This document shows positions 5,056 through 20,523 of a stretch of 32,000 nucleotides of DNA, piece by piece (the first letter of the stretch is position 1; every line of letters starts with the position of its first letter). Below the pieces are notes generated by a model. It was not told the DNA's origin. It made no database searches and saw nothing but the letters and a program-made list of their open reading frames with translations. The stretch comes from Nitrosospira multiformis ATCC 25196. Its GTDB lineage: Bacteria > Pseudomonadota > Gammaproteobacteria > Burkholderiales > Nitrosomonadaceae. A program made the translations under genes and the position numbers. Location of the stretch: assembly GCF_000196355.1 (NCBI RefSeq), contig NC_007614.1, positions 390,001 through 422,000 on the forward strand. The letters run 5' to 3'.

Positions 5056-6507
5056 ATGTCTTGTGAAATTCTTATCAATGTTACCCCCCAGGAAACGCGT
5101 GTCGCGGTGGTCGAGCATGGCGCCGTCCAGGAACTGCACATAGAGCGCACCAGCAATTGCGGCATAGTGGGCAATATATATAACGGGCGCGTAATCCGGG
5201 TGCTGCCGGGGATGCAATCCGCTTTCGTGGATATCGGTCTCGAACGGGCTGCTTTTCTCCACCTCGCTGATATCTGGCGCTTGCGGCAGAGTGAAGACGC
5301 TGATAAACCGATTGAACAGCTGTTATACGAAGGAAAAAATATCCTCGTCCAGGTTATCAAGGATTCAATCGGTGCCAAGGGTGCCCGCCTGTCGACTCAG
5401 GTCAGTATTGCGGGCCGTTTGCTGGTTTATCTGCCCCAAGTATCGCATATCGGCATTTCCCAGCGCATCGAAGATGAAACCGAACGGAAGTCGTTGCGTG
5501 AAAAACTGAAACATTTGTTGCCAGCCGCGGAAGAGGGAGGATTCATTATCCGTACCGTGGCGGAAGCGGCAAGTGAACAGGATCTGCAAACGGATATCGA
5601 GTACTTGCACAAGCTATGGCGCGATATCAAGGAAAAATCCCTGATTTCCCAGCCGGCCTTACTGTATCAGGACCTGAATCTGAGTTTCCGCGTCTTGCGC
5701 GACTTCATCAGTGATGATACGACTCGCATTCTGGTGGATTCGCGGGAAACTTTCCAGAAGATGGCGACCTTTGCACGAGTGTATATGGCCAACGTAGTGG
5801 AGCGCCTCGATCATTATGCGGGGGAGCGCCCTTTGTTCGAGTTGTATGGGGTGGAAGATGAAATCGAGAAAGCCCTGGCGAGGCGTGTCGACCTGAAGTC
5901 CGGGGGTTATTTGATCATTGATCAGACCGAGGCGCTTACCACCATCGATGTAAATACTGGGGGATTCATCGGCGTACGCAGTTTTGACGATACCATTTTC
6001 AAAACGAATCTCGAAGCGGCCCAGGTCATTGCGCGCCAACTCCGTCTTCGAAATCTGGGAGGCATTATCATTATCGACTTCATAGATATGGAGAGCGCGG
6101 AACACCAGAATGCCGTTCTCAGCGAATTCAAGAAGTCGTTGATGAAAGACCGGACTCACATGACGGTGAACGGTTTCACCGCCCTCGGACTCGTGGAAAT
6201 GACGCGCAAGCGGACGCGGGAGAGTCTGGCGCACATTTTGTGTGAAACCTGCCCGACTTGCCAAGGCCGCAGCAAAGTCCGGACGGCCCAGACCATGTGC
6301 TATGAAATCCTAAGGGAACTGCTGCGGGAATCCCGTCAGTTCGATGCGCGTGAATTCCGCATTGTGGCTTCACAGCAGGTAATCGATCTGTTTCTCGACG
6401 AAGAATCCCAAAGCCTGGCGCAACTTGCCGATTTTATCGCCAAACCCATCAGTCTTCAGGTGGAGGGGACGTATACCCAGGAACAATATGACCTGATTCT
6501 CATGTAG
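5056..6507 (+). CDS. rng: Ribonuclease G (RNase E/G family, short form)
   Basis: At 483 aa it has the size of RNase G and is far shorter than RNase E. It has an S1-like N-terminus (ILINVTPQETRVAVVE...GNIYNGRV.RVLPGMQSAFVDIG), the catalytic-core motifs TEALTTIDVNTG and IIIIDFIDM, and the zinc-link motif CxxCxG (CETCPTCQG). Confidence 0.9.
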   Translation: MSCEILINVTPQETRVAVVEHGAVQELHIERTSNCGIVGNIYNGRVIRVLPGMQSAFVDIGLERAAFLHLADIWRLRQSEDADKPIEQLLYEGKNILVQVIKDSIGAKGARLSTQVSIAGRLLVYLPQVSHIGISQRIEDETERKSLREKLKHLLPAAEEGGFIIRTVAEAASEQDLQTDIEYLHKLWRDIKEKSLISQPALLYQDLNLSFRVLRDFISDDTTRILVDSRETFQKMATFARVYMANVVERLDHYAGERPLFELYGVEDEIEKALARRVDLKSGGYLIIDQTEALTTIDVNTGGFIGVRSFDDTIFKTNLEAAQVIARQLRLRNLGGIIIIDFIDMESAEHQNAVLSEFKKSLMKDRTHMTVNGFTALGLVEMTRKRTRESLAHILCETCPTCQGRSKVRTAQTMCYEILRELLRESRQFDAREFRIVASQQVIDLFLDEESQSLAQLADFIAKPISLQVEGTYTQEQYDLILM

Positions 6508-7321
6508 CAGGTTTCACGGCAATAATCCCCTGGGGTCCGCTCCCTGAATATTCATTTTCTATCCCGGGCAGGCCGTTTCCTGTTTCCGGAAGGTTCCTTT
6601 TTATATCCTCTGTGATAACGTCATAGAGCGGCCGCAGGTTGGGTCTCATACCTTTTATCGTTCCACTGACACTCATCATTGAGGGAACGCGTATACCATG
6701 ATGCTCGACGGGGGGACCGATGAACTTAAGGTCGAACCCGAGTTTGGCGAAATGCAGTGCAAGGCGCTCTTCAGTCAGAATGAACAAAGTCTCGATTTTA
6801 TGCAGGCGCGCCAGTTCGAAGGTACCTAAATAAAGGCTGATTGGAATGTAAGGAAAGCGCCGAGATTGTGCTACTCCGAAATCTTCATCCGCGATGTCGA
6901 TCGCTTTGCTCGCCTCGCCTTTACGTCTTCGGTAACTGGCAACGACAGCCAGACGTGATACCTCTGCGATATGATGGCGGGGTAACAGCGCGGGATCGAT
7001 AATCGACCGGTCCAATGTATCAGCGCAGGTTATCTCAAAGGGTAAAGGATAATCAGGATCCTTCGGCCGGGGAGAGATTATGCGCGCGCAGCCAATGAAC
7101 TCTTGTGTCTGGACATTGCGTAACAAAAAGTGTAGCGAGTCAATATCATACTCATCGCTTTCTCGCCTATCCCGCTGAAGGGGCTCAAATTTGAGATCCT
7201 CGCAATAAACCTCATGCCGGATCCGGTGAACCTCATCTTTTAATTCGTCCGAAAACGCGGGTACGATTTCAAAGTACCTCTTGAATGCATGACCCAGATC
7301 AAGTATTTCGGTTAGAGACAT
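6500..7321 (-). CDS. N-acyl amino acid synthase-like GNAT of the PEP-CTERM/exosortase-system-associated acyltransferase type (distantly related to FeeM and LuxI)
   Basis: The N-terminus ...FKRYFEIVPAFSDELKDEVHRIRHEVYCEDLKFEP and the central ...HIAEVSRLAVVASYRRR match my recollection of the TIGR03694-type family. The gene lies in a block with prsT and a PEP-CTERM gene. Its 3' end overlaps the rng 3' end by 8 nt in convergent orientation. Confidence 0.78.
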   Translation of the reverse strand: MSLTEILDLGHAFKRYFEIVPAFSDELKDEVHRIRHEVYCEDLKFEPLQRDRRESDEYDIDSLHFLLRNVQTQEFIGCARIISPRPKDPDYPLPFEITCADTLDRSIIDPALLPRHHIAEVSRLAVVASYRRRKGEASKAIDIADEDFGVAQSRRFPYIPISLYLGTFELARLHKIETLFILTEERLALHFAKLGFDLKFIGPPVEHHGIRVPSMMSVSGTIKGMRPNLRPLYDVITEDIKRNLPETGNGLPGIENEYSGSGPQGIIAVKPAT

Positions 7322-7450
7322 GTTTCAGCCAACGGCAGTTTTCTCTGATACTTTAGGACGAAGCGAAAATATTCCGGGTTGAGACTTTCTTGCAGGAAGT
7401 TACCCCTGTTAACACGGAAGCGAACAGGTACCATTTACGTAAAACGAATT

Positions 7451-7483
7451 AAAGGCCGGTTTCAGAGCCTTTGTTGTTTTTTT
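7451..7483. terminator. Intrinsic-terminator-like hairpin just downstream of the LolA-like gene, potentially bidirectional
   Basis: AAAGGC (7451-7456) pairs with GCCTTT (7467-7472) around a 10-nt loop. On the + strand the hairpin is followed by GTTGTTTTTTT. On the - strand it is followed by AATTCGTTTT. It starts about 30 nt past the stop of the 7502..8263 gene. Confidence 0.6.
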
Positions 7484-7501
7484 ATGAGTCTCGTGATAGC
7501 C

Positions 7502-8263
7502 CTAGTCGAGTTTCTTTAAATAATCTTTGGTGAAAACCTTATCCGGAAGATCGCGCTGTTTCATTCCCGAGTATTCGAGTACCGATTGTTCACCTGTGCG
7601 CAAGGCATCTTCCATGACAAGACGGGTTGGACGCAACGCTCCATGGAGCATCTGGAATTTCTCGTACCGGGCGGTTTTGAGTAGACGGTCGGACAGTGAG
7701 TAGAATTCCGCTCGATAAGGCCAGAAATTTGATTGCCCAACCCAATACAAAACCTTATGATAAGTCACTCCACGGTCGACCCCTGTGAGTTCCAGCACGT
7801 AATACTTTTCGCCCTCGATAACGTCTGTGCGCAAAATTTTAGCGTTGTAATCCCCGGCAAAATTTGCGCGAGCCAAGTCCCCATTTGCTACTTGGCCGGT
7901 AAGCCGCTGGGACAGGGATAGACGTACGGGCTGGGAGACTTCCGGCATGAATATCCACAGATCTCGCCCTTTCAGCAATAAAATCTGACCTCGTTCCGAA
8001 GCTGGCTCCGTGGTCATCACTACGCTATTTTCGTTACCCTTGGATAAGACCCTGTACTTGCGCCAATCTTCCGGTTGACCCGGAGCGGTTGTGTTAATGG
8101 TGACGTCGACCTGAAAACTCTCTCGCGGGAATCGTATCTGATCAGCCTTTTCCAGAATTGTTTGAGCCAGCTCAGTATCATTTGTGTCTGCTATTGCGGT
8201 TGGCACCGCAATAGCAAATAGGAGAATCACCGTTAATAAGTATTGCTCAGAATTTTTTTGCAT
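7502..8263 (-). CDS. Periplasmic LolA-like protein (annotated in this family as 'outer membrane lipoprotein-sorting protein')
   Basis: Sec signal peptide (LLTVILLFAIAVPTAIA/DT) with no lipobox Cys. The body (...IRFPRESFQVDVTINT...YRVLSKG.ENSVVMTTEP..ERGQILLLKGRDLWIFMP....PVRLSLSQRL.GQV.NGD...) resembles the LolA_like family, which usually sits beside FtsX/ABC or RND exporters. Confidence 0.7.
   Translation of the reverse strand: MQKNSEQYLLTVILLFAIAVPTAIADTNDTELAQTILEKADQIRFPRESFQVDVTINTTAPGQPEDWRKYRVLSKGNENSVVMTTEPASERGQILLLKGRDLWIFMPEVSQPVRLSLSQRLTGQVANGDLARANFAGDYNAKILRTDVIEGEKYYVLELTGVDRGVTYHKVLYWVGQSNFWPYRAEFYSLSDRLLKTARYEKFQMLHGALRPTRLVMEDALRTGEQSVLEYSGMKQRDLPDKVFTKDYLKKLD
8190..8216 (+). 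promoter_or_regulatory. Perfect 10-bp-stem inverted repeat (GCTATTGCGG / CCGCAATAGC) whose loop and 3' arm read TGGCAC-CGCAA-TAGCA. This is a sigma-54-like -24/-12 element with one mismatch, about 105 nt upstream of the ABC ATPase ATG.
   Basis: Read directly. The GG-N10-GC spacing is correct. The -12 box is TAGCA where the consensus is TTGCA. The element lies inside the signal-peptide codons (AIAVPTAIA) of the divergent LolA-like gene. Confidence 0.3.
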
Positions 8264-8320
8264 GTTCAGTTCCTATCATGAATGCCAACTACTACAGGGA
8301 TTACCGGTCGGGGGATTTTT

Positions 8321-9055
8321 ATGAGTGACACGGGCATTGTGCACCTCGAGAATGTTTCCAAAGATTACATCCTTGGTGAGCAGAAAGTCCAGGCATTGAA
8401 AGACATTACGTTAGATATCGCCTCCGGCGCTTTCCTCGCTATTGCAGGTCCATCCGGCAGTGGCAAGTCAACGCTGCTCAATCTGATTGGTTGTATTGAT
8501 ACGCCCACCGCCGGCAAAGTTTTAATCAACGGTCAGGATATCAGCGGCCGTACTCCGGATGACCTGTCCGGGCTCAGGGCAAGAACTATCGGGTTTGTTT
8601 TTCAGACGTTCAATCTGTTTCCCGTTCTCTCTGCTGAGGAGAACGTCGAGTATCCGTTGCTGCAATTCAGGGAATTGAAGACAGCAGAGCGCCGCATCCG
8701 GGTTGCTGAATATCTCGATATCGTCGGTTTGTCCAGGTTTGCCCGGCATCGGCCGAACCAGCTCAGCGGAGGGCAACGTCAGCGTGTAGCGATTGCACGG
8801 GCACTGGCAACGCATCCGAAAATAGTATTGGCTGACGAGCCTACTGCCAATCTTGATCATGCGACAGGTGAAGGCATCCTGGAGCTGATGAAGAATATCA
8901 ACGACAAATTTGAGACAACCTTTATTTTTTCCACTCATGATTCGCGTGTCATGGCGATCGCGGACAATGTAATCCATATCCAAGATGGTCAGATCGTGCA
9001 ACGGGAAATTCGCAAGGAGAAATCCATGCACGTTATTGAACATAGGGATAGATAG
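8321..9055 (+). CDS. ABC transporter ATP-binding protein, LolD/MacB-type
   Basis: Walker A GPSGSGKST, signature LSGGQRQRVAIARAL, Walker B IVLADEPTANLD and H-loop STHD. I prefer the ATG at 8321 (MSDTGIVHLENVSKDY, preceded by GGGGGA) over the track start at 8282. Confidence 0.9.
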   Translation: MSDTGIVHLENVSKDYILGEQKVQALKDITLDIASGAFLAIAGPSGSGKSTLLNLIGCIDTPTAGKVLINGQDISGRTPDDLSGLRARTIGFVFQTFNLFPVLSAEENVEYPLLQFRELKTAERRIRVAEYLDIVGLSRFARHRPNQLSGGQRQRVAIARALATHPKIVLADEPTANLDHATGEGILELMKNINDKFETTFIFSTHDSRVMAIADNVIHIQDGQIVQREIRKEKSMHVIEHRDR

Positions 9056-9082
9056 ATGTGAAAAAGGTGACTTCCAAAGGTA

Positions 9083-10795
9083 ATGACGAAAGTAGCGCCG
9101 ATGAGTTACGGAATTAGGGGCGTATATCTGATAAGCCTAAAGGCACTGCTTGTTGTAAGGTCGATCAGCTTTGCAGGGGAGGCGCAGGTTCAGCTTCCGG
9201 ATGCTGCAAAACCGGTACCTGTTATCTACGACGCGAATGAGGACCGTACAACACCTGCCGAGCCTTTGATGCTCACTTTGTCTTTAGCGATGGGAACGTC
9301 CCCCGCTCGTCCGGTACGGGAGCCGGATGATAGAGCGGGCGCTGTGGTTTCGCAGGGGGAGAATGTGGAGAGAAGGCTGGGTGAGGAGAAGCCTTTGCTA
9401 TTGTCCGTATCACCTTCTCTTTCTTTTATTTCGGCTCCTGCAGCAAAAGATCATGAGATAAATCTGAGCAGAGAACCTGCCCCTGTCATTGCTGCCGGGA
9501 ACGATGCGGAGAGCGAGTTCACGTCGCGGGAAGCATTATTTGGCGACGATTTGGGTCAAGAGCAAAAGCCATCAAAACCTATGCCTGCCTGGAAGAGGTT
9601 GGTGACTGGGTGGAGGGGTTTTTCCCAGCTGGAAATCGCGGACACTTATACTGACCCCGAGCATTTATCGAAAGCAAAGCTTCGAACGGAGCTATCGCGC
9701 ACGGGACAGTTCAACGAAAACATAAAATGGAAAATAAGCGGTCGCTTCGACTATGACGCAGCTTATGACCTGTCCAGTTTTTATCCACACGCGGTCCGTC
9801 AGGATCAACGCTACCAGTTTTTCGTCCGAGAAAATTATCTTGATGTCTCGGCTGGCGATTTTGATTTCCGTCTCGGTCGTCAGCATGTGATATGGGGCGA
9901 GATGGTGGGACTGTTCTTTGCGGACGTGGTATCCGCGAAGGACTTGCGGGAATTTGTCCTGCCTGCCTTTGACATATTGCGCATTCCCCAATGGGCGGCG
10001 CGCGCGGAATATTCGAAGGGGGATTCCCATGCTGAAGTGGTGTGGATTCCTGTGCCGACTCTTGACGAAATTGGAAAGCCGGGAGCGGATTTCTATCCCG
10101 GTCCCTTGCGCGGAGTAGCTACCTATCTTCCAGAAGATCGCTCCGGGCGGAATATCGCGAACTCCAACTATGGGGTGCGTTTATCGCACCTTGTAAATGG
10201 CTGGGATATTTCGGGTTTCTACTACCACAGCCTGGATTCGTCGCCTACGTTCTATCGCATCGGTGGCCCGCTTGACCCTCCTGTCTTCCAGCCCCGTCAT
10301 GATGAGATTGACCAGGTGGGTGGAACCCTTTCGAAAGACTTCGGCTCAATCGTTTTAAAAGGCGAACTGATTTATACAGATGGACGCAAATTCAACGTCA
10401 CGCGACCCACCGCAATGAATGGGTTGGTCAGGCAGAATACGCTCGACTATGTTATAGGCCTGGATTTCAGTTTGCCTGCCGAAACCCGCTTGAATCTGCA
10501 GTTCTTTCAGCGTGTCTTTTTTACGCATGACCCGGATCTCCCTCTGGACCGGCTTGAGAATGGCGCCAGCATTCTGCTCAATGGCAAGCTCTCCCCCAAG
10601 ATTGAGGCTCAAGCTTTACTGATCCACAGTCTGAATCGTAGCGACTGGATGTTCCGGCCTCGATTATCCTGGAATTTCCAACCGAACTGGCGTTGGGCGG
10701 TTGGAGCAGACGTATTTGGCGGTCCACCTATTGGTCTGTTTGGCCGTTTCGATCATGCCGACCGCGTCTATACCGAATTGCGGTATTCATTCTGA
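9083..10795 (+). CDS. Putative outer-membrane beta-barrel protein, DUF1302-like, with a ~170-aa low-complexity N-terminal region
   Basis: The motif FRLGRQHVIWGEMVGLFFADVV resembles the DUF1302 hallmark (lRlGrQvvsWGE). The C-terminal half alternates aromatic and polar residues, and the protein ends ...YTELRYSF with the terminal Phe typical of BAM substrates. The start and signal peptide are uncertain. Confidence 0.6.
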   Translation: MTKVAPMSYGIRGVYLISLKALLVVRSISFAGEAQVQLPDAAKPVPVIYDANEDRTTPAEPLMLTLSLAMGTSPARPVREPDDRAGAVVSQGENVERRLGEEKPLLLSVSPSLSFISAPAAKDHEINLSREPAPVIAAGNDAESEFTSREALFGDDLGQEQKPSKPMPAWKRLVTGWRGFSQLEIADTYTDPEHLSKAKLRTELSRTGQFNENIKWKISGRFDYDAAYDLSSFYPHAVRQDQRYQFFVRENYLDVSAGDFDFRLGRQHVIWGEMVGLFFADVVSAKDLREFVLPAFDILRIPQWAARAEYSKGDSHAEVVWIPVPTLDEIGKPGADFYPGPLRGVATYLPEDRSGRNIANSNYGVRLSHLVNGWDISGFYYHSLDSSPTFYRIGGPLDPPVFQPRHDEIDQVGGTLSKDFGSIVLKGELIYTDGRKFNVTRPTAMNGLVRQNTLDYVIGLDFSLPAETRLNLQFFQRVFFTHDPDLPLDRLENGASILLNGKLSPKIEAQALLIHSLNRSDWMFRPRLSWNFQPNWRWAVGADVFGGPPIGLFGRFDHADRVYTELRYSF

Positions 10796-10826
10796 TTGAT
10801 TTCAGAAGCAAGTACTTTATATACCT

Positions 10827-12038
10827 TTATATATTCTGTCGTAGCGCATCAACAACGGGGGTGCGCGAGATATGCCTCCCGGGAACGATAGCCGCCGATA
10901 CTGTTGCTGCTATACCGATGGCAAAGGATGCCAGCAAAACGCCGGGGACAATCTGGATGTGGGCTGTATAGCCAAGGTTGGAATTTGGAGGCGGCGGCAT
11001 CGAGATACCGATCGCAGAGATAATAAGCGCGAGGCCAATTCCGAGTCCGAGCCCGAGGCCGCTGCCGATCACTCCCAGTAGGAAGTTTTCCGTGATGATC
11101 AATTGGAATACTTCGTTTCTGCGGTTGCCCAGGGCCATCATTGTGCCGAATTCTCCTGTTCTTTCAAAAGCACTCATGTTGACACTGTTCAGGACCCCGA
11201 GCAGAACCATGATAAGGATAATCAGTTGCAGAAAACCTAGCTGGCGTCCATAAAGTTCTACCGTTTTTTCGTAGAAATCGTTGAGTTCGATCCACGTTTT
11301 GATCTCCAGCCCCAAAGTCTCTAACTGTTCTTTTAGCAGCCCTGCAATACGAAATGTATCGTCCGTTTTTTTCAGTGAGATGACCAGTGCATTAACGCCT
11401 TGCGTGCCCAGCAACTCCTGGGACGCGGCGAGCGGAATTCTTATTGCTCTAGCATCATAATCACTGGAGAAACTCTTGAATACGCCGACGACCTCCAGAT
11501 CAATGGTGTTTAATGCTCCTTCCAGTGTATTTGCCAGCAGGGTTACGTGATCGCCGGGTTTCAGCTTCAATTCCTGGGCGACGCCCACCCCGATAGCGAT
11601 ACCGAACTTATCCGTGTTTTGCAGTTGACGCCCCGAGATGATCGAGACGGAGCTTCCAAGCGCCGCTTCTTTCGCTGGTTCTACACCCTCTCCAATGATG
11701 GGAAGGTCAGCCCGGCCGTTATTGAGCAGGGCCGAGAAATTGAGTCGCGCCATTACGCTATCGATACCCTCGTTATTCATGATACGCCGTTTAATGGCCT
11801 CGTCATCCGTTATCAGATATCTCTCCGGGGCGTGCGCTCCGGCAGCAAAAAAACCTTCCTTGTAGACTTGCAGATGACCGGATCGAGAGTGGATAAGAGC
11901 CTCCGATAAAGTAACGAAAATATCGTTCACCCAGCCGCCAGCAAGAACAAGAGCTACCACGCCGCTCACGATCGCCGCCAGAGTCATTGCGGTGTGTGAT
12001 TTCTGTCGAAAAATATTTCGAAAGGCCAGTCTGAGCAT
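10827..12038 (-). CDS. ABC transporter permease, FtsX/MacB-LolC/E family (paralog 2)
   Basis: N-terminal LAFRNIFRQKSHT followed by TM1, a large periplasmic domain, and a C-terminal FtsX domain (...NMSAFERTGEFGTMMALGNRRNEVFQLIITENFLLGVIGSGLG...). At 403 aa its size is comparable to LolC/LolE. Confidence 0.85.
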   Translation of the reverse strand: MLRLAFRNIFRQKSHTAMTLAAIVSGVVALVLAGGWVNDIFVTLSEALIHSRSGHLQVYKEGFFAAGAHAPERYLITDDEAIKRRIMNNEGIDSVMARLNFSALLNNGRADLPIIGEGVEPAKEAALGSSVSIISGRQLQNTDKFGIAIGVGVAQELKLKPGDHVTLLANTLEGALNTIDLEVVGVFKSFSSDYDARAIRIPLAASQELLGTQGVNALVISLKKTDDTFRIAGLLKEQLETLGLEIKTWIELNDFYEKTVELYGRQLGFLQLIILIMVLLGVLNSVNMSAFERTGEFGTMMALGNRRNEVFQLIITENFLLGVIGSGLGLGLGIGLALIISAIGISMPPPPNSNLGYTAHIQIVPGVLLASFAIGIAATVSAAIVPGRHISRTPVVDALRQNI

Positions 12039-12054
12039 TATTCACTTTTCCGAA

Positions 12055-13284
12055 TTATCTATTGTGACGTAGCGCATCCACTATCTGCATGCGGGATGCC
12101 TTCCAGGCTGGGTATATACTGGCAGTGAGCGTTGCGCCGATCGCAAGCAAAAGGGATTCGAATGCAATATTCCACGTGACAAGTATTTCGCCCGTATAGC
12201 CACGGGTCGTCCCTGGGGGGGGCGGCATCGGGATCCCTATGCTCGATATCATGGCAGCCAGCGCTACCCCTATCGTAACCCCGAGCAGGCCGCCGAAACC
12301 GCCGAGCAGAATGCCTTCGCTTAGGAAGCGTCGGAGAACGTCGATGCGTCTGGCGCCAAGCGCCATATCAGTACCAATTTCCCCGATCCGCTCCATTACC
12401 GACATCGTCATGGCATTCAAAATGGCAAGAAGGATGATGAAGGCGATTATCAGCTTGAGGCCATGGATTTGTTTTGTAAACAAAGCCACGGTCTTATTGT
12501 AGAAATCAGCCAGGACATACCAGGGAACCACCTCGAAATCGCTCTTTTGCAATGAATCGCGTAATCTTTGGAGTACAGTATCGGTCTTCGCTGTGTCATT
12601 CAACAACACTACCCATACGTGAGAACCTTTGACCCGGAGGAGTTGGCGGGCTGTTTCGATCGGCATGCGTAGGGCGATATCGTCGTAAGACTTGTTTACA
12701 GTGGAGAACAATCCCCGGACAGTGACCTCAACCGCATTGACGCCCCTTGATGCGGTACTCGCCAATAGCACAACCTTATCGCCAATGTTTACGTTGAGGT
12801 TGCGGCCAAGACCCACACCTAGAATAATGCCCTTCGGGGCATCTACTGAAAGATTTTCACCCGCAGAAATTTCCACCGAGCCGCTGAGAATGGCCTTTTC
12901 CTCTGGGATGACTCCTTCTCCAACAAATGAAAGAGTTGCGTCTCCGTGACTGATCAGACCGCCAAAGGAGAGGCGGGGGATGATGGTCTTGATTTGAGCT
13001 GGACCGTTTGCCGGTTCCAGTTCAGGAATTGCATCCGGTAAAAGATAAGCGTATGGATCAGCTTTTCCTGCTTCCTGATAGCCCGGTCTGCTGATCTGGA
13101 TATGGCCGAGTTGCGACTGGATGGTGGCTTCCTGCATGCCCCAGAATATCCACTCGATAAAGCCCGCTGCAAGGATCAGGGCGATAATGCCAAACGTAAC
13201 CGCGCCCACAGCGATGGCGCTGCGACGCTTGTGCCGCACCATATTTCGAAATGCAAGCAAAAAGTCGAGCCGAATACGATCCAC
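12055..13284 (-). CDS. ABC transporter permease, FtsX/MacB-LolC/E family (paralog 1)
   Basis: It has the same architecture as the downstream paralog (LAFRNMVRHKRRS...; ...MSVMERIGEIGTDMALGARRIDVLRRFLSEGILLGGFGG...). The GTG start is preceded by AAGGA. It lies 16 nt upstream of the second permease gene. Confidence 0.85.
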   Translation of the reverse strand: MDRIRLDFLLAFRNMVRHKRRSAIAVGAVTFGIIALILAAGFIEWIFWGMQEATIQSQLGHIQISRPGYQEAGKADPYAYLLPDAIPELEPANGPAQIKTIIPRLSFGGLISHGDATLSFVGEGVIPEEKAILSGSVEISAGENLSVDAPKGIILGVGLGRNLNVNIGDKVVLLASTASRGVNAVEVTVRGLFSTVNKSYDDIALRMPIETARQLLRVKGSHVWVVLLNDTAKTDTVLQRLRDSLQKSDFEVVPWYVLADFYNKTVALFTKQIHGLKLIIAFIILLAILNAMTMSVMERIGEIGTDMALGARRIDVLRRFLSEGILLGGFGGLLGVTIGVALAAMISSIGIPMPPPPGTTRGYTGEILVTWNIAFESLLLAIGATLTASIYPAWKASRMQIVDALRHNR

Positions 13285-13338
13285 CCTCTATATCCTTCTG
13301 CTCAGTGCGCGCTGCCACATCGCGCTATCGCCCGGGAG

Positions 13339-13370
13339 AACAGGGGAACGAGTTAACAGGGAAACGAGTT
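13339..13370. repeat. Tandem 16-nt direct repeat AACAGGGGAACGAGTT / AACAGGGAAACGAGTT in the divergent permease/glycosyltransferase intergenic region
   Basis: Read directly. The two copies match at 15 of 16 positions. The repeat lies 55-86 nt upstream of the permease GTG (13284) on the other strand. Confidence 0.75.
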
Positions 13371-13474
13371 CTCTGCTTGCGCCTGGCAGCAGCGCACGAA
13401 CTGTAACGATAGGATCGGAATTGATCATTGTCGCTCAAGCCTTATCCAGGATAGACCGTTAATGCCGGATCGAG

Positions 13475-13498
13475 ATAATCCCTGCGCTGCAGGATTAT
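13475..13498. promoter_or_regulatory. Inverted repeat ATAATCC-N10-GGATTAT, a candidate operator about 135-155 nt upstream of the glycosyltransferase start
   Basis: Read directly: two 7-bp perfect arms. Confidence 0.35.
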
Positions 13499-13630
13499 GC
13501 TGAGAAAAATTCCATTGAGGCGACTTCCAATCTTACCCCAGGCGGAAGGTACGATGCACATCGATACGCCCCTGATTTCAGGATGGAAGTATGATACGAA
13601 ATAATTCTCAACGTAAAAGGTATTATTACC

Positions 13631-14857
13631 GTGACGAAGCCGCAAATGGAAACCGGAAATAAGCCGATTATTCTTCTAGTGGCTGAAGCAGTCACCCTTG
13701 CGCATTTCGGTCGAATCGTGACGTTGGCGAGAGCCCTTGATTCTAACAAGTATGAAGTGGTTGTCGCCTCGGATCCCCGTTATCTTGATTTAGACGCGCC
13801 ACTGAACTGCACGTTCCATCCTATTCGGTCTATTCCCTCAGCCGAATTTGCGCTAGCCCTTGCTCGGGGAAAACCAGTGTATAGCCTTGAAACCCTCTCC
13901 CGTTATATCGAAGATGATCTGGCGCTGCTTGATCTCGTCAGACCTGCTCTCGTCGTGGGAGATTTCAGACTATCTCTGGCCGTGAGCGCGCCGCTACGGA
14001 AAATTCCATTTGCCACCGTAGTCAACGCCTACTGGAGCCCCTATGCAGTGACCCGCTACCCTGTTCCCGATCTTCCGGTGACCCGCATTCTCGGTATCAC
14101 ACTTGCGCAAAAATTATTCGATATTATCAGACCCGTTGCCTTCGCCCTCCATGCCAGGCCCTTGAACCGGTTGCGTCGACGTTTCGGATTGACCCCTTTG
14201 AAGCAGGATATCAGAAACACATACACGTGGGCGGATTACACTTTATACGCGGACATCCCGGAAGTAGTGCCTGCGCTTAATTTACCTCCCCACCATCGCT
14301 ATCTTGGTCCAATACTCTGGTCCGCCGCCATCTCTCTGCCTGCATGGTGGGACTGCTTACCCGAAGACAAACCGGTGGTATTTCTAAGCCTGGGGAGCTC
14401 GGGCATGGCAGCACTTCTGCCAATGGCTCTTGCCGCCTTATCACAACTTGCGATCACAGTTGTCGTAGCCACTGCAAGAAAAATTACCATAGATGAGGTT
14501 CCAGCGAATGCATATGTTACTGATTACCTGCCATTGGACCGGGTTGCTTCACGCTTGAAAATAGTGATCAGCAACGGCGGCAGCCTGACTACGTATCAGG
14601 CGCTTTCAAGCGGAGTGCCGGTGATCGGCCTGTGTTCGAACCTGGATCAACTGCTGAATATGAATGCAGTGCAGCAGTTGGGGGCCGCTATTACCTTGCA
14701 TTGCGCTCGGATATCCGTCACTGACCTTGTGATGGCTGTAACCGCAATGCTGGATAATCCATCGTATGGACGAGCAGCAATCAAGATAAGCCAGATCTTG
14801 GCAGAATCGGATGCTAAACAGCGTTTTCGGGAATTTGTGGTGCAGGTACTTCATTAA
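13631..14857 (+). CDS. GT1-family (GT-B, UDP-glycosyltransferase / MGT-like) glycosyltransferase
   Basis: The C-terminal sugar-donor signature IVISNGGSLTTYQALSSGVPVIGLCSNLDQ fits the UDPGT pattern ([HNQ]-x-G...P...D-Q). The N-terminus LLVAEAVTLAHFGRIVTLARAL is typical of MGT/UGT enzymes acting on lipophilic acceptors. The start could be the GTG at 13631 or the ATG at 13646. Confidence 0.75.
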   Translation: MTKPQMETGNKPIILLVAEAVTLAHFGRIVTLARALDSNKYEVVVASDPRYLDLDAPLNCTFHPIRSIPSAEFALALARGKPVYSLETLSRYIEDDLALLDLVRPALVVGDFRLSLAVSAPLRKIPFATVVNAYWSPYAVTRYPVPDLPVTRILGITLAQKLFDIIRPVAFALHARPLNRLRRRFGLTPLKQDIRNTYTWADYTLYADIPEVVPALNLPPHHRYLGPILWSAAISLPAWWDCLPEDKPVVFLSLGSSGMAALLPMALAALSQLAITVVVATARKITIDEVPANAYVTDYLPLDRVASRLKIVISNGGSLTTYQALSSGVPVIGLCSNLDQLLNMNAVQQLGAAITLHCARISVTDLVMAVTAMLDNPSYGRAAIKISQILAESDAKQRFREFVVQVLH

Positions 14858-14912
14858 AAAAAGAAGGTGTAAAAACTTGCTGGATAATTGGCGGCGATAA
14901 GGAGACAACTGG

Positions 14913-15725
14913 ATGGATCATCAATACACAACACTTGAGAGAAATCGATATTTCGAGGTGCTTGGCGGTTTGAACGTGGAAAATCGCGGCGACAATAAAG
15001 TTGCGATGCTCTCGGAACTTGATATGACATCGGCGCAGGCATTGCGGACTTCCGTCGACCGGCAGACCGGCATCAAACCCTCGTACACTGCGATTGTAGC
15101 CAAGGCAGTTTCAATAGCCTTGCGAGAGCATCCATATGCTAACCGAATGGCAGTGGAACGTTTGTTCTGGAAGCGCATCCTGCAATTGCATGACGTGCAT
15201 ATGACAATTGCGGTAGAACGTGACCGGCCGGGTATCGAACAGGCCGTGTTCGCAGGTACGATCAGGGATACTGACAAGCTGGATGTAGCTGCCATCACCA
15301 AAGAGTTGCAAAGCTTGGCGCAGTCAACAGAAGAAACCAACGAACGCTGGCGACTGCTCAAGCGTATGGTTGAGACCCTTCCGCCCGCTTTGGCTCGCCG
15401 GTTAATATCGATTCCGCGTTGGCTTCCAGATCAGTGGATCAAGCATCGAGGCGGCTCAGTCATGATTTCATCGCCCGCCAAATATGGGGTGGATATGATG
15501 GTTGCGAACTGGCCATGGCCGATCGGCTATTCTTTCGGCTTGGTGAAAGACCGGGTGATCGCGGTGGAGGGTGCGGCGCAGGTAAGACCCACCATGGTTC
15601 TCACCATGAGTTTCGATCGTCGGCTAATGGGGGGAGCACCGGCTGCCCGGTTTTTTCGCACAGTATGCGAACATATAGAGCATGCGGAACGGGATATGGC
15701 TTTACCTGTGAACATCCCTTCATAG
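14913..15725 (+). CDS. Stand-alone 2-oxoacid dehydrogenase E2-type (CAT-fold) acyltransferase domain protein with a non-canonical active site
   Basis: At 270 aa it has no lipoyl or E3-binding domain. The C-terminal LTMSFDRRLMGGAPAARFF aligns to aceF LSLSYDHRVIDGATAARF from this same window, giving His to Arg and Asp to Gly. A strong SD (AAGGAG) precedes the ATG. Confidence 0.75.
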   Translation: MDHQYTTLERNRYFEVLGGLNVENRGDNKVAMLSELDMTSAQALRTSVDRQTGIKPSYTAIVAKAVSIALREHPYANRMAVERLFWKRILQLHDVHMTIAVERDRPGIEQAVFAGTIRDTDKLDVAAITKELQSLAQSTEETNERWRLLKRMVETLPPALARRLISIPRWLPDQWIKHRGGSVMISSPAKYGVDMMVANWPWPIGYSFGLVKDRVIAVEGAAQVRPTMVLTMSFDRRLMGGAPAARFFRTVCEHIEHAERDMALPVNIPS

Positions 15726-15810
15726 CAGCTTCGCTCCAAGGTTGGATCTGGCAACCCGCGAAGCGAATAACGTGCTGCATGAGACAGGAGTTCAATATCT
15801 CCAGCACGAC

Positions 15811-15839
15811 AATGAAAAGGCCACCCCGACAGGGTGGCC
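15811..15839 (-). terminator. Rho-independent terminator of the PEP-CTERM protein gene
   Basis: A perfect 8-bp GC-rich stem (GGCCACCC, 15819-15826, paired with GGGTGGCC, 15832-15839) with a 5-nt loop. On the - strand it is followed by TTTTCATT. It begins about 30 nt past the stop at 15870. Confidence 0.7.
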
Positions 15840-15869
15840 CGAAGAGTGAATGCGATAACCGCTGTTTAC

Positions 15870-16709
15870 TCAGGTGCGACGACGGCCCGTGAAGGCAAAA
15901 CCAAGCAGACCGATACCCATCAGAGCTAAAATGCCGGGCTCCGGCACTTCTCCGTGAGTAAAACCTTGTGATCCATCGGTTTGGATTACAAAACTCGATG
16001 CAGTGTCAGCCCCGGTGGCAACTCCGTCAAATGCTGCCGGCCGCGTATAGGATGGCGCACTCTGGCCGGGGAACTGAAGCGAGGCTTGAAACTGAGTGCC
16101 TGCCAACGCCGGATTCACATACGTGTTATTAGTGAAGGTGACCGTTCCGAACAGAAAACCGCCGCCCGTGCCGAGTACGGCCGGCCCGGGAATCGCACCG
16201 GTTGCAGAGAAGGTGCTGAAACCGCTATCCCATGTTCCACTCAGTATGTTCACCCCGTCGAGAAAGCCCGTCCCGGTGGACTGGTTCGCATCAGGACTGG
16301 AATCAAGGAAAATCCGCCATGATCCGCTGTTCGTGGTGATATCGATGCTGGAGCACCCATCGTTCGCGCAAGTCGCGGTCTGTGTAAGCGTCTGAAAGGT
16401 GGTTACTTCGTACGTTCCATTTTGGGAGCCAGGAGCCGCCACAAATAGATTATTCGTCGGGGAAGTGGTGTTGATGACACCTGCAAAGGCTTGATACGTC
16501 AAGGTGAAGGTATCGCTATCACCTTGCATGTTGGCACCGGTCAGGTCAAACCCCTGAACCCAGCCGCCACCATTTGAATGCCAGTCGAAGCCTGTAAAAT
16601 TTTGCAGTACTCCATCTGCGCTGAATGTGTCCAGGGTTGCGGAATATCCAATGGCGGGACCACCCAGCAATACTGCAGCCATTGATAAATTGATGAGCTT
16701 TTTATTCAC
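15870..16709 (-). CDS. PEP-CTERM-anchored secreted protein (Thr/Gly/Ser/Asn-rich; possibly related to flocculation-type PepA proteins)
   Basis: N-terminal signal peptide (MNKKLINLSMAAVLLGGPAIGYSA). The C-terminus has the VPEP motif, a hydrophobic helix and a basic tail (VPEPGILALMGIGLLGFAFTGRRRT), which is the textbook PEP-CTERM sorting signal. The GTG start is preceded by GGGGAGAG. Confidence 0.9.
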   Translation of the reverse strand: MNKKLINLSMAAVLLGGPAIGYSATLDTFSADGVLQNFTGFDWHSNGGGWVQGFDLTGANMQGDSDTFTLTYQAFAGVINTTSPTNNLFVAAPGSQNGTYEVTTFQTLTQTATCANDGCSSIDITTNSGSWRIFLDSSPDANQSTGTGFLDGVNILSGTWDSGFSTFSATGAIPGPAVLGTGGGFLFGTVTFTNNTYVNPALAGTQFQASLQFPGQSAPSYTRPAAFDGVATGADTASSFVIQTDGSQGFTHGEVPEPGILALMGIGLLGFAFTGRRRT

Positions 16710-16766
16710 GATTCTCTCCCCATAGCAATAACGATAAAAGAAGCTGTTTGTTTCAGGTTATACCCA

Positions 16767-16782
16767 AGCAATCCCTATGCCA
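16767..16782 (-). promoter_or_regulatory. Sigma-54 (-24/-12) promoter TGGCAT-AGGGA-TTGCT driving the PEP-CTERM gene
   Basis: On the - strand it reads TGGCATAGGGATTGCT, against the consensus TGGCAC-N5-TTGCW. The GG-N10-GC spacing is exact. The predicted TSS near 16756 gives a ~47-nt leader. An AT-rich tract lies upstream. Confidence 0.75.
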
Positions 16783-17377
16783 TCTTTTATATTATTTTAT
16801 TTAAGTTTTAATATCAGTTACTTATCAATCCTCGACTCTCTTGCATCCAGATTGAAGTCTCAAGGTGTAAGAAATATCGACAGCGCTCCTGCTTTTGTGC
16901 TTCTTCCAAAGCATTTTCGATACCTTTGTGAGGGCTTTTTCAGGAGTCGTGGTTGCTGGATATCCTGGTGCCAATCCCGTTGTGGGGCGATATAGAGTAT
17001 AGCCAATTACAGGGAGGGAATCATGGGACGAGTATTACGAGTATCATATGGCTGTTGCCCGTGAGGTCATAACATTTCCCGGCTTCCCGGATTAGAAGGG
17101 CAAGATTCCAAGAAAACTCAAGCAATGCCATCCGACCGGTCTTTCTCCGCCTGAAACACTTGCGGAGCAGGCCATTCGCGCCAGAAACAGCCAGCATTCC
17201 TTGCTGTAATCGAGATAAGACGGACCACTCTCGGGCTCGGGGATTCAAAATCCCCGGGGACTGCATCCTGAATCGACAGTCAGCAAATAGCCACCAGATT
17301 CCTCATTGTTCCAGACTTCGGAAGGAGACAAGTATTCCCCCAGACTTGCCAATGAATGAAGCGGGCGAACGGGCATA

Positions 17378-19432: not shown

Positions 19433-19504
19433 TACCCGGGCCGATCAGTAGGAATAGGGGAGCAATTTGAGGTGAGCTATATATGATGTGAATGATAGCA
19501 TCAA

Positions 19505-19521
19505 TGCCAAATGCTTTGGCA
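19505..19521. promoter_or_regulatory. Perfect inverted repeat TGCCAAA-TGC-TTTGGCA in the 162-nt spacer between the FeeM-like and ThiF-nitroreductase genes
   Basis: Read directly: 7-bp arms and a 3-nt spacer, set in an AT-rich spacer. Confidence 0.5.
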
Positions 19522-19594
19522 GGGAAGACTGATGGAAAAATATCAGCTTCAAGGGCAGAAAAATTGCAGAAGTTAAAAAGCATGTACGTGAATT

Positions 19595-20413: not shown

Positions 20414-20454
20414 GTAGTTTATCCTCGTATAGCACTGAAGGTAAAAAACAAGCA

Positions 20455-20470
20455 AGCAATATCCATGCCA
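20455..20470 (-). promoter_or_regulatory. Sigma-54 (-24/-12) promoter TGGCAT-GGATA-TTGCT driving the FeeM-like / ThiF-nitroreductase operon
   Basis: On the - strand it reads TGGCATGGATATTGCT. Its half-sites are identical to those of the promoter at 16767-16782. The predicted TSS near 20444 gives a ~31-nt leader to the ATG at 20413. Confidence 0.75.
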
Positions 20471-20523
20471 TCTTTATATCGTGAGCTTTATCAGCTATCT
20501 AGCTATGTGTGTTACCGCACAGA

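Follow-up and report, generated by a model that had tools for sequence, protein, structure and literature searches.

Does the soil nitrifier Nitrosospira multiformis ATCC 25196 carry, beside its expected lipoprotein-sorting machinery, another Lol-like route across its envelope, and what would such a route carry? The window analysed here, a 32,000-nt stretch of its genome, contains five ORFs at 7502–13284 that a first-pass annotation had read as a second, complete Lol-like pathway. The coordinates and strands given there for all five were borne out, as was the geometry: the carrier gene is divergent from the ATPase gene and the barrel gene behind it, and the two permease genes run towards that of the barrel. 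The five genes are as follows.

7502–8263, minus strand: periplasmic LolA-fold carrier, TP_0789-like and of the "LolA3" type (253 aa; PF17131 LolA_like)
8282–9055, plus strand: type VII ABC ATPase of the LolD/MacB-NBD/DevA clade (257 aa; ABC_tran)
9083–10795, plus strand: DUF1302-family outer-membrane beta-barrel with a signal peptide (570 aa; PF06980)
10827–12038, minus strand: FtsX-type permease B, with a MacB_PCD periplasmic domain and 4 TM (403 aa; second gene of the pair)
12055–13284, minus strand: FtsX-type permease A, MacB_PCD and FtsX (409 aa; first gene of the pair)

We consider it somewhat better than an even chance that this module serves, as an accessory route across the envelope, to export an amphiphilic acyl-amide lipid and is assembled from Lol-type and DUF1302/DUF1329-type parts. 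Gene content, family memberships, folds and co-conservation in two clades were observed directly; each step of transport, the nature of the cargo and which way it is moved we infer from genomics alone.

Profile searches with the ATPase gave 122.7 bits against ABC_tran (Pfam), with the Walker A, signature motif, Walker B and H-loop all intact, and its top NCBIfam models were LolD, MacB NBD and DevA, in agreement with the LolD/MacB type proposed at first; the scores against LolD (TIGR02211; 216 bits, cut-off 307.75) and DevA (211.6 bits, cut-off 295.8) stayed below the cut-offs. Its true start is likely the ATG at 8321 (244 aa), which is preceded by GGGGGA and agrees with the start used in public assemblies. 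The two permeases are indeed paralogous, sharing 39% identity over 399 residues without gaps (E = 4e-78). Permease A matched FtsX at 64 bits and MacB_PCD at 54 bits, and permease B at 66 and 64 bits (Pfam); against lolCE (TIGR02212; cut-off 362 bits) they reached 94.6 and 83 bits, respectively. The top PDB match of permease A was LolC (3e-12), with MacB at 2e-11, and that of permease B was LolE (E = 6e-16). We infer that permeases A and B form a heterodimer.

Such matches might also befit a DevBCA-type exporter or a pump of the MacAB-TolC type (efflux or resistance), with the adaptor and outer-membrane duct encoded elsewhere and the LolA-like and barrel genes as mere neighbours, since the ATPase scores against the MacB NBD and DevA almost equal its LolD score and the match of permease A to MacB is only slightly poorer than that to LolC. 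However, profile matches revealed no HlyD-type (membrane-fusion) or TolC-type gene in the window island, nor any membrane-fusion protein or TolC gene among the conserved neighbours of either of the two clades compared below. Moreover, NBD and permease are separate proteins here, and carrier, barrel, ATPase and permease remain linked even where the carriers share only ~35% identity, for which mere neighbourhood is insufficient. A pump of this kind is, in our estimate, very unlikely.

The carrier matched PF17131 LolA_like at 167 bits (cut-off 30; Pfam) and is 75% identical to PDB 3BUU (NE2245). As the first-pass annotation had it, a signal peptide is present: the Sec-type signal at the N-terminus (MQKNSEQYLLTVILLFAIAVPTAIA/DT) contains no Cys and therefore no lipobox, which is likewise absent in 90 of 94 carrier-family representatives; the mature protein is predicted to be soluble. 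Target-normalised Foldseek TM values of its AF2 model (pLDDT 79.5) were 0.92 against 3BUU and 0.73–0.77 against 9TP6, 4Z48 and 3BK5, in contrast to 0.47–0.55 against canonical LolA. By its model, the carrier thus has a LolA-superfamily fold, nearest to DUF1329 and Porphyromonas gingivalis LolA3 (TM about 0.7–0.75). The likeness to Lol proposed earlier therefore holds for the parts list (an ATPase of LolD type encoded on its own, a pair of paralogous FtsX permeases with 4 TM each, and a LolA-fold protein that is soluble) but less so for the carrier fold.

The barrel matched PF06980 DUF1302 at 50 bits (cut-off 23.2; Pfam) and ends in ...TELRYSF, with the beta-signal ...RYSF, consistent with the DUF1302-like barrel that had been suggested to take the place of LolB. 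Its start is probably 9101, which gives the 564 aa called in public assemblies. An N-terminal stretch of about 190 aa is disordered; in the AF2 model, residues 1–214 are disordered and residues about 300–550 (pLDDT 62–90) form roughly 16–18 strands, with 16–18-stranded porins as the top Foldseek matches (TMt about 0.5). Confidence in this model is only moderate, which counts against the export reading. Neither Pfam profiles nor Foldseek revealed POTRA or Omp85-type features in the barrel.

With a parts list the same as that of Lol except for LolB, the module might be taken for a divergent housekeeping lipoprotein pathway. However, every NCBIfam Lol equivalog cut-off is widely missed, the carrier matches PF17131 rather than the LolA family and resembles LolA in fold only at a TM of about 0.5, and a pattern-limited scan covering representatives of 185,579 species gave 390 matches, with the module in a restricted range of lineages. 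Gene order is fluid, accessory biosynthetic genes surround the module, and the literature places LolB in beta-proteobacteria. The first reading of this locus had also held that it is not housekeeping Lol, and we regard such a role as extremely improbable: the scores lie far under the LolC/E/D equivalog cut-offs, the occurrence is sporadic and the location is an accessory island. The N. multiformis ATCC 25196 genome is expected to contain canonical lolA, lolB and lolCDE (or lolDF) at other loci.

To assess co-conservation, carrier loci from 80 betaproteobacterial genomes were compared, 51 of them with full flanks. An ATPase orthologue was present in 80/80 loci and a barrel orthologue was found in 75/80 (48/51 with full flanks); the permease pair was present in 40/80 (30/51). 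The absence of permeases from the neighbourhood of the other 21 of the 51 full-flank loci counts against the export reading, and it is uncertain whether the pathway is "complete", as originally described, with the permease genes more than 10 kb off in many genomes. In three loci (L008, L017 and L022), the ATPase gene directly follows the permease A–permease B genes on the same strand; this relocation ties the ATPase to the permeases. Accumulibacter retains only the synthase described below and the carrier, divergent from ATPase and barrel, a reduced set which points to synthase, carrier, ATPase and barrel as the functional core.

A distant clade, with carriers about 35% identical to that of N. 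multiformis, has the barrel immediately 3' of the carrier in 28/31 loci, and the first possible barrel start lies −44 to +9 nt from the carrier stop in 42/42 loci, which suggests that the two genes are translationally coupled. The ATPase and a single permease were each found in 13/14 loci. The co-conservation that had been proposed as a check is thus observed, the genes forming a module in each of two clades distant from one another; strong family matches together with co-conservation across genomes are far beyond chance.

What the module would carry is suggested by its neighbours, which had been described as lipid-forming enzymes and PEP-CTERM genes; both are real.

6500–7321, minus strand: PEP-CTERM/exosortase-associated acyltransferase of the N-acyl amino acid synthase family (TIGR03694), directly 3' of the carrier gene
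13631–14857, plus strand: GT1 (MGT-like) glycosyltransferase
14913–15725, plus strand: stand-alone 2-oxoacid_dh-type acyltransferase (E2-like)
15870–16709, minus strand: PepA, flocculation-associated PEP-CTERM protein (NF033554)
17378–19432, minus strand: ThiF-like adenylating domain fused to a nitroreductase/FMN domain (Pfam ThiF and Nitroreductase; PRK08223)
19595–20455, minus strand: FeeM-type N-acyl amino acid synthase (PF21926), with a sigma-54-type promoter upstream
20657–23488, minus strand: PrsT, TPR lipoprotein of the XrtA/PEP-CTERM regulatory system (TIGR02917), at the island edge

The enzyme beside the carrier gene, presumed to make the cargo lipid, reached 261 bits against TIGR03694 (cut-off 112; NCBIfam) and also matched Acetyltransf_5 (Pfam), with weak matches to Autoind_synth and FeeM. 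A TIGR03694 synthase lies directly 3' of the carrier and co-directional with it in 42/80 loci (median gap ~109 nt). The FeeM-type synthase matched PF21926 at 181.8 bits and PDB 2G0B (FeeM) at E = 1e-10; its true start is probably near 20413, with a promoter-like sigma-54 site at 20455–20470. The ThiF–nitroreductase fusion (437 bits against PRK08223) probably tailors what FeeM makes, and one NCBIfam model, PRK14852, covers FeeM, ThiF and nitroreductase. FeeM adjoins the module in 11/80 loci and a ThiF–nitroreductase lies near it in 29/80; GT1 (14/80) and the E2-like gene (4/80) are additions confined to particular lineages, with a possible role in modifying the lipid. Within the distant clade, FeeM synthase genes adjoin the module in L093, L094, L098 and L125, ThiF–nitroreductase genes lie near it in L098 and L103, and L098 has a compact divergent cluster of FeeM-PilZ, ThiF and nitroreductase against ATPase, FtsX, LolA_like and DUF1302. 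Other sub-lineages have Mpo1-like and penicillin-amidase (AHL-acylase family) neighbours. Three observations count against the export reading: neither a TIGR03694 nor a FeeM synthase lay within 10 kb in 17/51 full-flank loci, a weak search of the distant clade detected a synthase close to the carrier in just 2/14 full-flank loci, and sigma-54 sites of the FeeM/PepA type were not found conserved 5' of the transporter genes. The gene neighbourhood, the sole basis for an acyl-amide cargo, nevertheless fits the hydrophobic small molecule of the earlier proposal through its tight N-acyl amino acid synthase linkage; the lipid-modified protein offered there as the alternative is weakly supported.

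In that alternative, the module would be a private Lol-like route to the outer membrane either for PEP-CTERM proteins that exosortase would furnish with a lipid at the C-terminus, the acceptor or anchor being the N-acyl amino acid or something derived from it, or for a dedicated lipoprotein subset. The module shares its island with PepA (166 bits against NF033554, cut-off 80; NCBIfam) and PrsT (952 bits against TIGR02917, cut-off 312), TIGR03694 is exosortase-associated by NCBIfam definition, and the sigma-54 promoter of PepA (TGGCATAGGGATTGCT; 16767–16782, 58 nt 5' of the start) is near-identical to that of FeeM. LolA-fold proteins carry lipoprotein acyl chains, and the Borrelia BBJ23-29 cluster has been interpreted as such a private route for lipoproteins or lipid-modified proteins (PMC13078400). 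However, just 3/80 loci have PepA close to the module and 7/80 have PrsT there, which makes PepA island context outside the conserved module, and the Accumulibacter core has no PEP-CTERM gene nearby. In the distant clade, genomes with module and synthase genes, L098 included, had no PrsR or PrsK match above cut-off. The barrel's want of POTRA or Omp85-type features also speaks against protein cargo, as do the carrier's nearest structural kin, DUF1329 and LolA3, neither of which is linked to lipoprotein sorting; nor does LolA3 bind LolB. We hold a lipid-modified protein to be an improbable cargo.

For export of an acyl-amide lipid, the following sequence may be envisaged. The lipid, most likely a fatty one of N-acyl-amino-acid type bound for the cell surface, would come from the neighbouring enzymes, namely the TIGR03694 synthase by the carrier gene and FeeM with its ThiF–nitroreductase partner nearby, and in Nitrosospira GT1 and the acyltransferase may tailor the product further. 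It would arrive at the periplasmic leaflet of the inner membrane, perhaps by spontaneous flip-flop, where the permease heterodimer and a dimer of the LolD-like ATPase would extract it by type VII ABC mechanotransmission. The soluble LolA-fold carrier would then receive the lipid and dock on, or stably partner, the DUF1302 barrel, which would deliver the lipid to the outer membrane or past it. No type VII ABC transporter is known to carry substrates across the inner membrane, and because the synthase is cytoplasmic this scheme is one step short, which counts against the export reading and likewise makes it uncertain that the pathway is complete. Given that the Nitrosospira module lies inside a PEP-CTERM/PrsT floc island, the lipid, once exported, probably helps to form matrix or flocs.

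The same parts could handle hydrophobic compounds in another way, the barrel and LolA-fold pair serving their uptake, retrograde traffic or turnover, as discussed before for DUF1302/DUF1329, while the ABC complex inserts or removes them at the inner membrane or, as a mechanotransmitter, drives a periplasmic partner instead of a shuttle. Pseudomonas DUF1302/DUF1329 mutants have catabolic (fatty-ester) phenotypes, which could mean uptake or hydrolysis instead of export; the P. putida mutants show a defect on fatty esters, and a function as esterase or in uptake has been put forward. The carrier fold is nearest DUF1329, the carrier–barrel translational coupling predicted in the distant clade suggests a stable complex over a free shuttle, YbbAP-TesA and FtsEX are type VII ABCs that serve periplasmic enzymes, and a penicillin-amidase/AHL-acylase-type gene is a neighbour at some loci. 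However, the recurring neighbours (two synthase families, ThiF–nitroreductase and GT) are biosynthetic, not catabolic, and importer-type parts (a substrate-binding protein, type I/II permeases) are not linked. As a chemolithoautotroph, Nitrosospira hardly needs to take up lipids. Uptake or turnover is accordingly unlikely in our judgement.

As an export route, the module would be an unstudied variant of Lol-like lipid export routes already known. Known systems of its kind are the Lol-like export of aryl polyenes and flexirubin and the DUF1302/DUF1329/RND system. Canonical Lol uses LolB as the acceptor, whereas the N. multiformis module has a DUF1302 barrel instead, and since the carrier is structurally closer to the DUF1329/LolA3 type, the outer-membrane half of the module is nearest to the DUF1302/DUF1329 pair, not to LolA–LolB.

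All five open reading frames that the first-pass annotation had read as a second, complete Lol-like trans-envelope pathway were present, on the strands and at the coordinates it assigned to them:

7502–8263, minus strand, periplasmic carrier (LolA-like protein)
8282–9055, plus strand, ABC ATPase
9083–10795, plus strand, DUF1302-type barrel
10827–12038, minus strand, FtsX permease PermB
12055–13284, minus strand, FtsX permease PermA

The carrier matched the PF17131 (LolA_like) profile over its full length with 167 bits (gathering score, 30). This was its sole Pfam match; the LolA family (PF03548) gave none, nor did NCBIfam. The protein is 75% identical to the crystallized NE2245 of Nitrosomonas europaea (PDB 3BUU), and its signal peptide contains no Cys, in agreement with the proposed LolA-like protein lacking a lipobox. 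Foldseek analysis of its AF2 model (pLDDT 79.5) retrieved LolA-superfamily proteins without exception, with target-normalized TM values of 0.92 for 3BUU, 0.73–0.77 for P. gingivalis LolA3 (9TP6) and Vibrio 3BK5, 0.71–0.77 for D. piger DUF1329 (4Z48), and 0.47–0.55 at most for canonical LolA proteins. The protein has the unclosed beta-barrel (half-barrel) fold and helical lid of a LolA-type chaperone and is predicted to be soluble, with a type I signal peptide. A homology search with a diverse profile listed matches mostly from the same betaproteobacterial clade. Structures of PF17131 carriers of the LolA3/TP_0789-like type have been solved, while their partner and function were still open in work of 2025–2026; deletion of LolA3 gave no phenotype, and LolA3 did not bind LolB.

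The ATPase retained every ABC motif, and its scores were nearly equal for LolD (216 bits; TIGR02211 equivalog cut-off, 307.75), the MacB nucleotide-binding domain (NBD; 215.5 bits) and DevA (211.6 bits), all under the curated NCBIfam cut-offs. Its true start is probably the ATG at 8321, with a GGGGGA ribosome-binding site; the resulting 244-aa product is the one called in public assemblies. PermA and PermB, each with MacB_PCD and FtsX domains (Pfam), are paralogues sharing 39% identity in a gap-free alignment. They scored 94.6 and 83 bits, respectively, with the LolC/E equivalog TIGR02212 (cut-off, 362), and 30–66 bits with the LolE and LolC exception models (cut-offs, 439–540). In architecture the transporter is of the LolCDE type, with a separate NBD gene and two paralogous four-TM FtsX permeases bearing a large periplasmic domain. 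The periplasmic domains aligned best with LolE, LolC and LolF, and more weakly with MacB. At the Hook/Pad region of LolC, PermA 176–188 aligned with LolC 167–179 without gaps, so that length but not sequence was conserved; PermB is 5 residues shorter than LolE at the aligned position.

These scores, together with the carrier having no LolA-family match, leave next to no credence for the reading of the module as the housekeeping Lol system, and on this point the curated tests, all of which fell short, bore out the earlier annotation. The near-equal MacB score of the ATPase brings up a MacAB-type pump, which needs an adaptor and an outer-membrane duct. The NBD is encoded by a separate gene, and adaptor and duct are missing: no HlyD or OEP family was found among the window ORFs, and no HlyD- or TolC-type gene occurred in the island or among conserved neighbours in either of the two clades described below. 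We consider such a pump very unlikely. Lol-type parts that miss the Lol cut-offs, combined with the lack of an adaptor and duct, place the module in neither the Lol nor the MacAB–TolC family.

Both permeases carry an M-P-P-P-P motif at residues ~345–352, where a short periplasmic loop joins TM3 to TM4. Of 76 betaproteobacterial permease orthologues, 74 keep this motif; the single permease of the distant clade lacks it and has P-G-A-S/T instead. The start codons of carrier and ATPase lie 57 nt apart in the window (8264–8320), and about 10–88 nt apart in 74/76 loci, with starts extrapolated from alignments. At this distance the divergent promoters must overlap, either mutually or with coding sequence. 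This gap showed no conserved motif, either in the window (8264–8320) or in the near-clade loci (L001–L080).

The barrel protein scored 50 bits with PF06980 (DUF1302; gathering score, 23.2) over profile positions 84–429 of 541 and ends in RYSF, which upholds its annotation as a DUF1302-like outer-membrane barrel. All barrel homologues carried PF06980; the barrel of the distant-clade metagenome locus L098 scored 39.7 bits. The AF2 model, of moderate confidence (mean pLDDT 55; 62–90 over residues ~300–550), showed roughly 16–18 strands, and the protein, which has a signal peptide and ends in an aromatic beta-signal, appears to be of the large (~18-strand) DUF1302 type. Foldseek returned generic porin-size matches only (TMt about 0.5), so the structure gave no mechanistic clue. 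The model and these matches fit published work, according to which DUF1302 proteins form 18-strand barrels and none has a solved structure (PMC13499233); the role of DUF1302 barrels is disputed. Residues 1–190 (9083–9650) form a disordered, Pro/Ala/Glu-rich N-terminal extension with pLDDT <50, and homologues in Nitrosomonas and other genera, ~460–475 aa long, lack most of these ~190 residues. One possibility is that it serves as a periplasm-spanning tether.

Co-conservation was analyzed in a near-clade scan, limited by pattern and to one genome per species and seeded with a six-carrier alignment. All relatives returned were at least 66% identical, and the window proteins were searched against all ORFs of the loci holding the best 80 of 390. 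These loci came from Nitrosomonadaceae, Accumulibacter, Propionivibrio, Azonexus, Gallionellaceae, Sterolibacterium and Chitinimonas; two were N. multiformis strains (L001, 99% identity; L002, 98%). Here and in the other locus analyses, gene starts were extrapolated from alignments.

Genes found with the carrier in the best 80 of 390 near-clade loci, and in the full-flank subset (51 loci, each flanked by 9 kb or more on both sides)
ATPase: 80/80
Barrel: 75/80; full-flank 48/51
Permease pair: 40/80; full-flank 30/51
TIGR03694 synthase, directly downstream of the carrier and co-directional: 42/80; full-flank 26/51
ThiF-nitroreductase: 29/80; full-flank 22/51
GT1: 14/80; full-flank 10/51
FeeM: 11/80; full-flank 9/51
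PrsT: 7/80
PepA: 3/80

The co-conservation expected of a five-gene pathway held for the ATPase (80/80) and the barrel (75/80), but the permease pair accompanied the carrier in only 40 of these best 80 of 390 loci. In three loci (L008, L017 and L022) the ATPase gene was relocated behind PermA-PermB on the same strand, which ties the ATPase to these permeases. The median gap from the carrier stop to the start of the TIGR03694 gene was about 109 nt. In Accumulibacter, including the complete genome L072, the synthase and carrier genes were divergent from those of ATPase and barrel; only these remained together, and no permease gene was found within 10 kb of the core. No further gene family conserved across lineages was found in the near-clade loci. 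The Accumulibacter core (L072 11692–19027, and other loci) is flanked by genes for an HDOD-histidine kinase, a response-regulator-PAS-GGDEF-EAL protein and a VanZ-domain protein, a signalling neighbourhood that hints at c-di-GMP control.

A scan of metagenomes, likewise restricted by its search pattern and with seed carriers about 35% identical to the window carrier, yielded 56 distant-clade loci of 32–55% GC. The barrel gene immediately followed the carrier gene in 28 of 31 loci with enough sequence, and its first possible start lay at −44 to +9 nt from the carrier stop in 42/42 loci; such proximity suggests translational coupling of a stoichiometric pair. Loci with adequate flanks contained the ATPase (13/14) and a single permease (13/14), so the PermA/PermB heterodimer appears as a betaproteobacterial elaboration. 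In L098, a compact cluster places FeeM-PilZ, ThiF and nitroreductase genes divergently from ATPase, FtsX, LolA_like and DUF1302 genes, with no above-cut-off match to PrsR or PrsK. Co-conservation in both clades indicates that the four-part transport cassette is ancient, and the distant-clade context that its tie to enzymes for acyl-amide lipids recurs irrespective of PEP-CTERM genes. Among the distant-clade neighbours, one sub-lineage (L084, L088–L101) has a VanZ-like gene divergent from the carrier and an Mpo1-like gene between barrel and permease, and four of its loci contain a penicillin-amidase/AHL-acylase-family gene. The VanZ-like, Mpo1-like (2-hydroxy fatty acid dioxygenase family) and amidase neighbours would all fit a metabolism of acyl lipids or acyl amides. 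A search for additional conserved gene families among the neighbours in this clade found none.

In the window, the module lies in an island (6500–23488) flanked by housekeeping genes (PDH E2, Maf and RNase G on one side; CysQ, RsmE, ArgA and PPK on the other). A gene for a GT1 glycosyltransferase also lies within the island, as do the following features:

6500–7321, minus strand, TIGR03694 PEP-CTERM/exosortase system-associated acyltransferase, directly downstream of the carrier (261 bits vs 112)
14913–15725, plus strand, stand-alone 2-oxoacid_dh-type acyltransferase
15870–16709, minus strand, PepA, flocculation PEP-CTERM protein (166 bits vs 80)
17378–19432, minus strand, ThiF-nitroreductase fusion (ThiF-NR)
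19595–20455, minus strand, FeeM-type N-acyl amino acid synthase (PF21926, 181.8 bits vs 27; PDB 2G0B, E = 1e-10)
20657–23488, minus strand, PrsT (952 bits vs 312)

By the curated HMM cut-offs, which both exceed, the TIGR03694 protein and FeeM are predicted N-acyl amino acid synthases; the former also showed weak similarity to AHL synthases. No exosortase, PrsK or PrsR gene was found in the window; Nmul_A2521 has been listed as EpsH (Haft 2006). The combination of FeeM with a ThiF-like adenylating enzyme (PRK08223) and an FMN protein of the Acg/nitroreductase type is recurrent (17378–20455; L098 4692–7889), with a pairwise fusion in the window and separate genes in L098, and NCBIfam PRK14852 (989 aa) covers all three in a single protein. 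FeeM of L098 is fused to a c-di-GMP-binding PilZ domain. One possibility for the chemistry of the trio is adenylation and dehydrogenation of an N-acyl amino acid. The acyltransferase at 14913–15725 is a lone 2-oxoacid dehydrogenase E2 catalytic (CAT-like) domain beside GT1, without lipoyl and E3-binding domains; such a gene occurred in only 4 of the best 80 of 390 related loci, and the true PDH E2 lies at 1125–2516 of the same window. GC content dips to 0.46–0.50 within the island (7000–9000 and 19000–21000) against 0.53–0.57 in the flanks. The order of synthase, RNase G, Maf and PDH E2 genes is kept in 13–17 loci of Nitrosospira and Nitrosovibrio; any acquisition must therefore be older than this group.

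Two sigma-54-type promoters, at 16767–16782 and 20455–20470 (both minus strand), are almost identical over an extended sequence, AAAGATGGCAT-N5-ATTGCTTG. The first precedes PepA by 58 nt. The second immediately precedes the FeeM/ThiF-NR operon, and its position implies a FeeM start near 20413 and not at the TTG at 20455. A TGT-N11/12-ACA element lies 60–85 nt further upstream of each promoter (near 16866–16882 and 20531–20548), that of FeeM being a perfect palindrome, CTGTCTCC-AACA-GGAGACAG. This layout matches motif 1 and motif 2 of PEP-CTERM genes (Haft 2006). It suggests that FeeM and ThiF-NR belong to the same PrsR-type regulon. A sigma-54-like site upstream of the ATPase (TGGCACCGCAATAGCA, 8201–8216) was considered as a link of the module to this regulon and rejected as chance, since only the two N. 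multiformis strains L001 and L002 have it and any such site occurred in 3/80 loci. Over the whole window, 21 sigma-54-like sites were found and 18 expected, which is no excess. Generic promoter and terminator scans of 6300–17400 gave counts not above shuffled expectation, and the window contained no Rfam matches and no tRNAs. Within that terminator scan, as a whole not above chance, two hairpins stood out. One, weak and terminator-like, separates the carrier and TIGR03694 genes (7451–7472, minus strand), where it may make read-through partial in this strain; the other, strong, GC-rich and with a T-rich tail, directly follows PepA (15818–15840, minus strand).

The module is best described as a Lol-like export system for a specialized lipid, composed of a type VII ABC extractor, a LolA3/DUF1329-type carrier and a DUF1302 barrel; a literature search found no published description of this gene set. 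The route below is inferred at every step, cargo and direction included. A lipid, once at the outer leaflet of the inner membrane, would be extracted by PermA/PermB and the ATPase through type VII mechanotransmission and handed to the soluble carrier, which would pass it on to the DUF1302 barrel; the barrel would insert it into the outer membrane or release it beyond. The cargo is likely a small acyl-amide lipid rather than triacylated proteins. A lipidated protein as cargo is unlikely, for PepA and PrsT are seldom near the module and the PEP-CTERM context is undetectable in the distant clade. We give still less weight to a reading of the module as the envelope-transit machinery of the PEP-CTERM/exosortase system, in which exosortase would attach an N-acyl amino acid, or its ThiF-activated derivative, to the cleaved PEP-CTERM C-terminus, and extractor, carrier and barrel would take the lipid anchor or the lipidated proteins to the surface; if true, this would constitute a bacterial "C-terminal lipoprotein" pathway parallel to Lol. 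A role in uptake or turnover, as debated for DUF1302/DUF1329 proteins, is unlikely and a poor fit with the biosynthetic neighbours.

The co-conservation described here gives PF17131 carriers and DUF1302 barrels a concrete, testable partner set. We propose a fifth functional class of type VII ABC systems, combining an extractor, a LolA-fold carrier and a barrel for a small-lipid substrate. It may provide a surface route for N-acyl amino acids in floc- or biofilm-forming nitrifiers and polyphosphate accumulators (Nitrosospira, Nitrosomonas and Accumulibacter), genera that matter in wastewater treatment.

Compared with LolCDE–LolA–LolB of E. coli, the module shares a separate LolD-clade ATPase, a paralogous pair of four-TM FtsX permeases with MacB_PCD, a soluble LolA-superfamily carrier, and the presumed logic of inner-membrane extraction, periplasmic chaperoning and outer-membrane delivery. 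It differs in scoring far under the equivalog cut-offs, in its PF17131 carrier with a larger sheet, in having an integral DUF1302 barrel as acceptor where Lol has the lipoprotein LolB, and in being accessory, sporadic and linked to lipid biosynthesis genes. DevBCA exports heterocyst glycolipids. Both YbbAP–TesA and DevBCA–HgdD resemble the module in using a type VII ABC transporter to extract or export substrates that are hydrophobic or glycolipids (YbbAP: PMC12646458); however, their partners are the periplasmic hydrolase TesA, or a membrane-fusion protein with a TolC-like duct (DevB/HgdD), with neither a LolA-fold carrier nor a DUF1302 barrel. The Borrelia lp38 cluster BBJ23–BBJ29 differs in its Omp85/BamA-like barrel, homodimeric permease and plasmid location; lipoproteins are its favoured cargo, and that proposal is purely computational, as is ours. 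In another precedent from the literature, a Methylomonas mutant did not form its polysaccharide band (PMC11072679; PMC7293339).

P. gingivalis LolA3 (9TP6) has the same Pfam family and fold as the carrier and lacks a LolB pairing. In Bacteroidota, PF17131-family proteins, named "outer membrane lipoprotein-sorting protein" in databases, are encoded in iron-starvation operons that also specify an MMPL transporter and ABC ATPases. These LolA3-type operons resemble the module in joining a carrier gene to those of a membrane transporter and ABC ATPases, and differ in the MMPL transporter and induction by iron starvation; a DUF1302 barrel or synthase gene is unreported there. The DUF1302/DUF1329/BNR-repeat/RND (COG1033) set of Pseudomonas, Shewanella and others likewise pairs a DUF1302 barrel with a LolA/LolB-fold periplasmic partner, with genetic linkage to an inner-membrane transporter and hydrophobic substrates. 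Its DUF1302, DUF1329, BNR and RND proteins are cofit, and export of an envelope component was proposed (bioRxiv 10.1101/072470); a DUF1302–DUF1329 complex was predicted with an ipTM of 0.84 (PMC13499233). The module differs from this set in its engine (type VII ABC, not RND/MMPL), its carrier (PF17131, not PF07044) and its linkage to N-acyl amino acid synthases instead of catabolic/LuxR contexts, and no BNR or RND gene was found in the window. Aryl polyene and flexirubin clusters, which encode their own LolA-like and LolB-like proteins (ApeL/ApeM/ApeN and LolA2/LolB2, respectively), also dedicate a LolA-like chaperone to the lipid of the adjacent cluster, with proposed outer-membrane localization (PMC8253772; PMC11885536). 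Where the module has an ABC extractor and a beta-barrel, these clusters rely on an RND transporter and a lipoprotein resembling LolB (DUF3261 or LolB2), and their chemistry is that of polyenes, whereas that proposed here is of acyl-amides.
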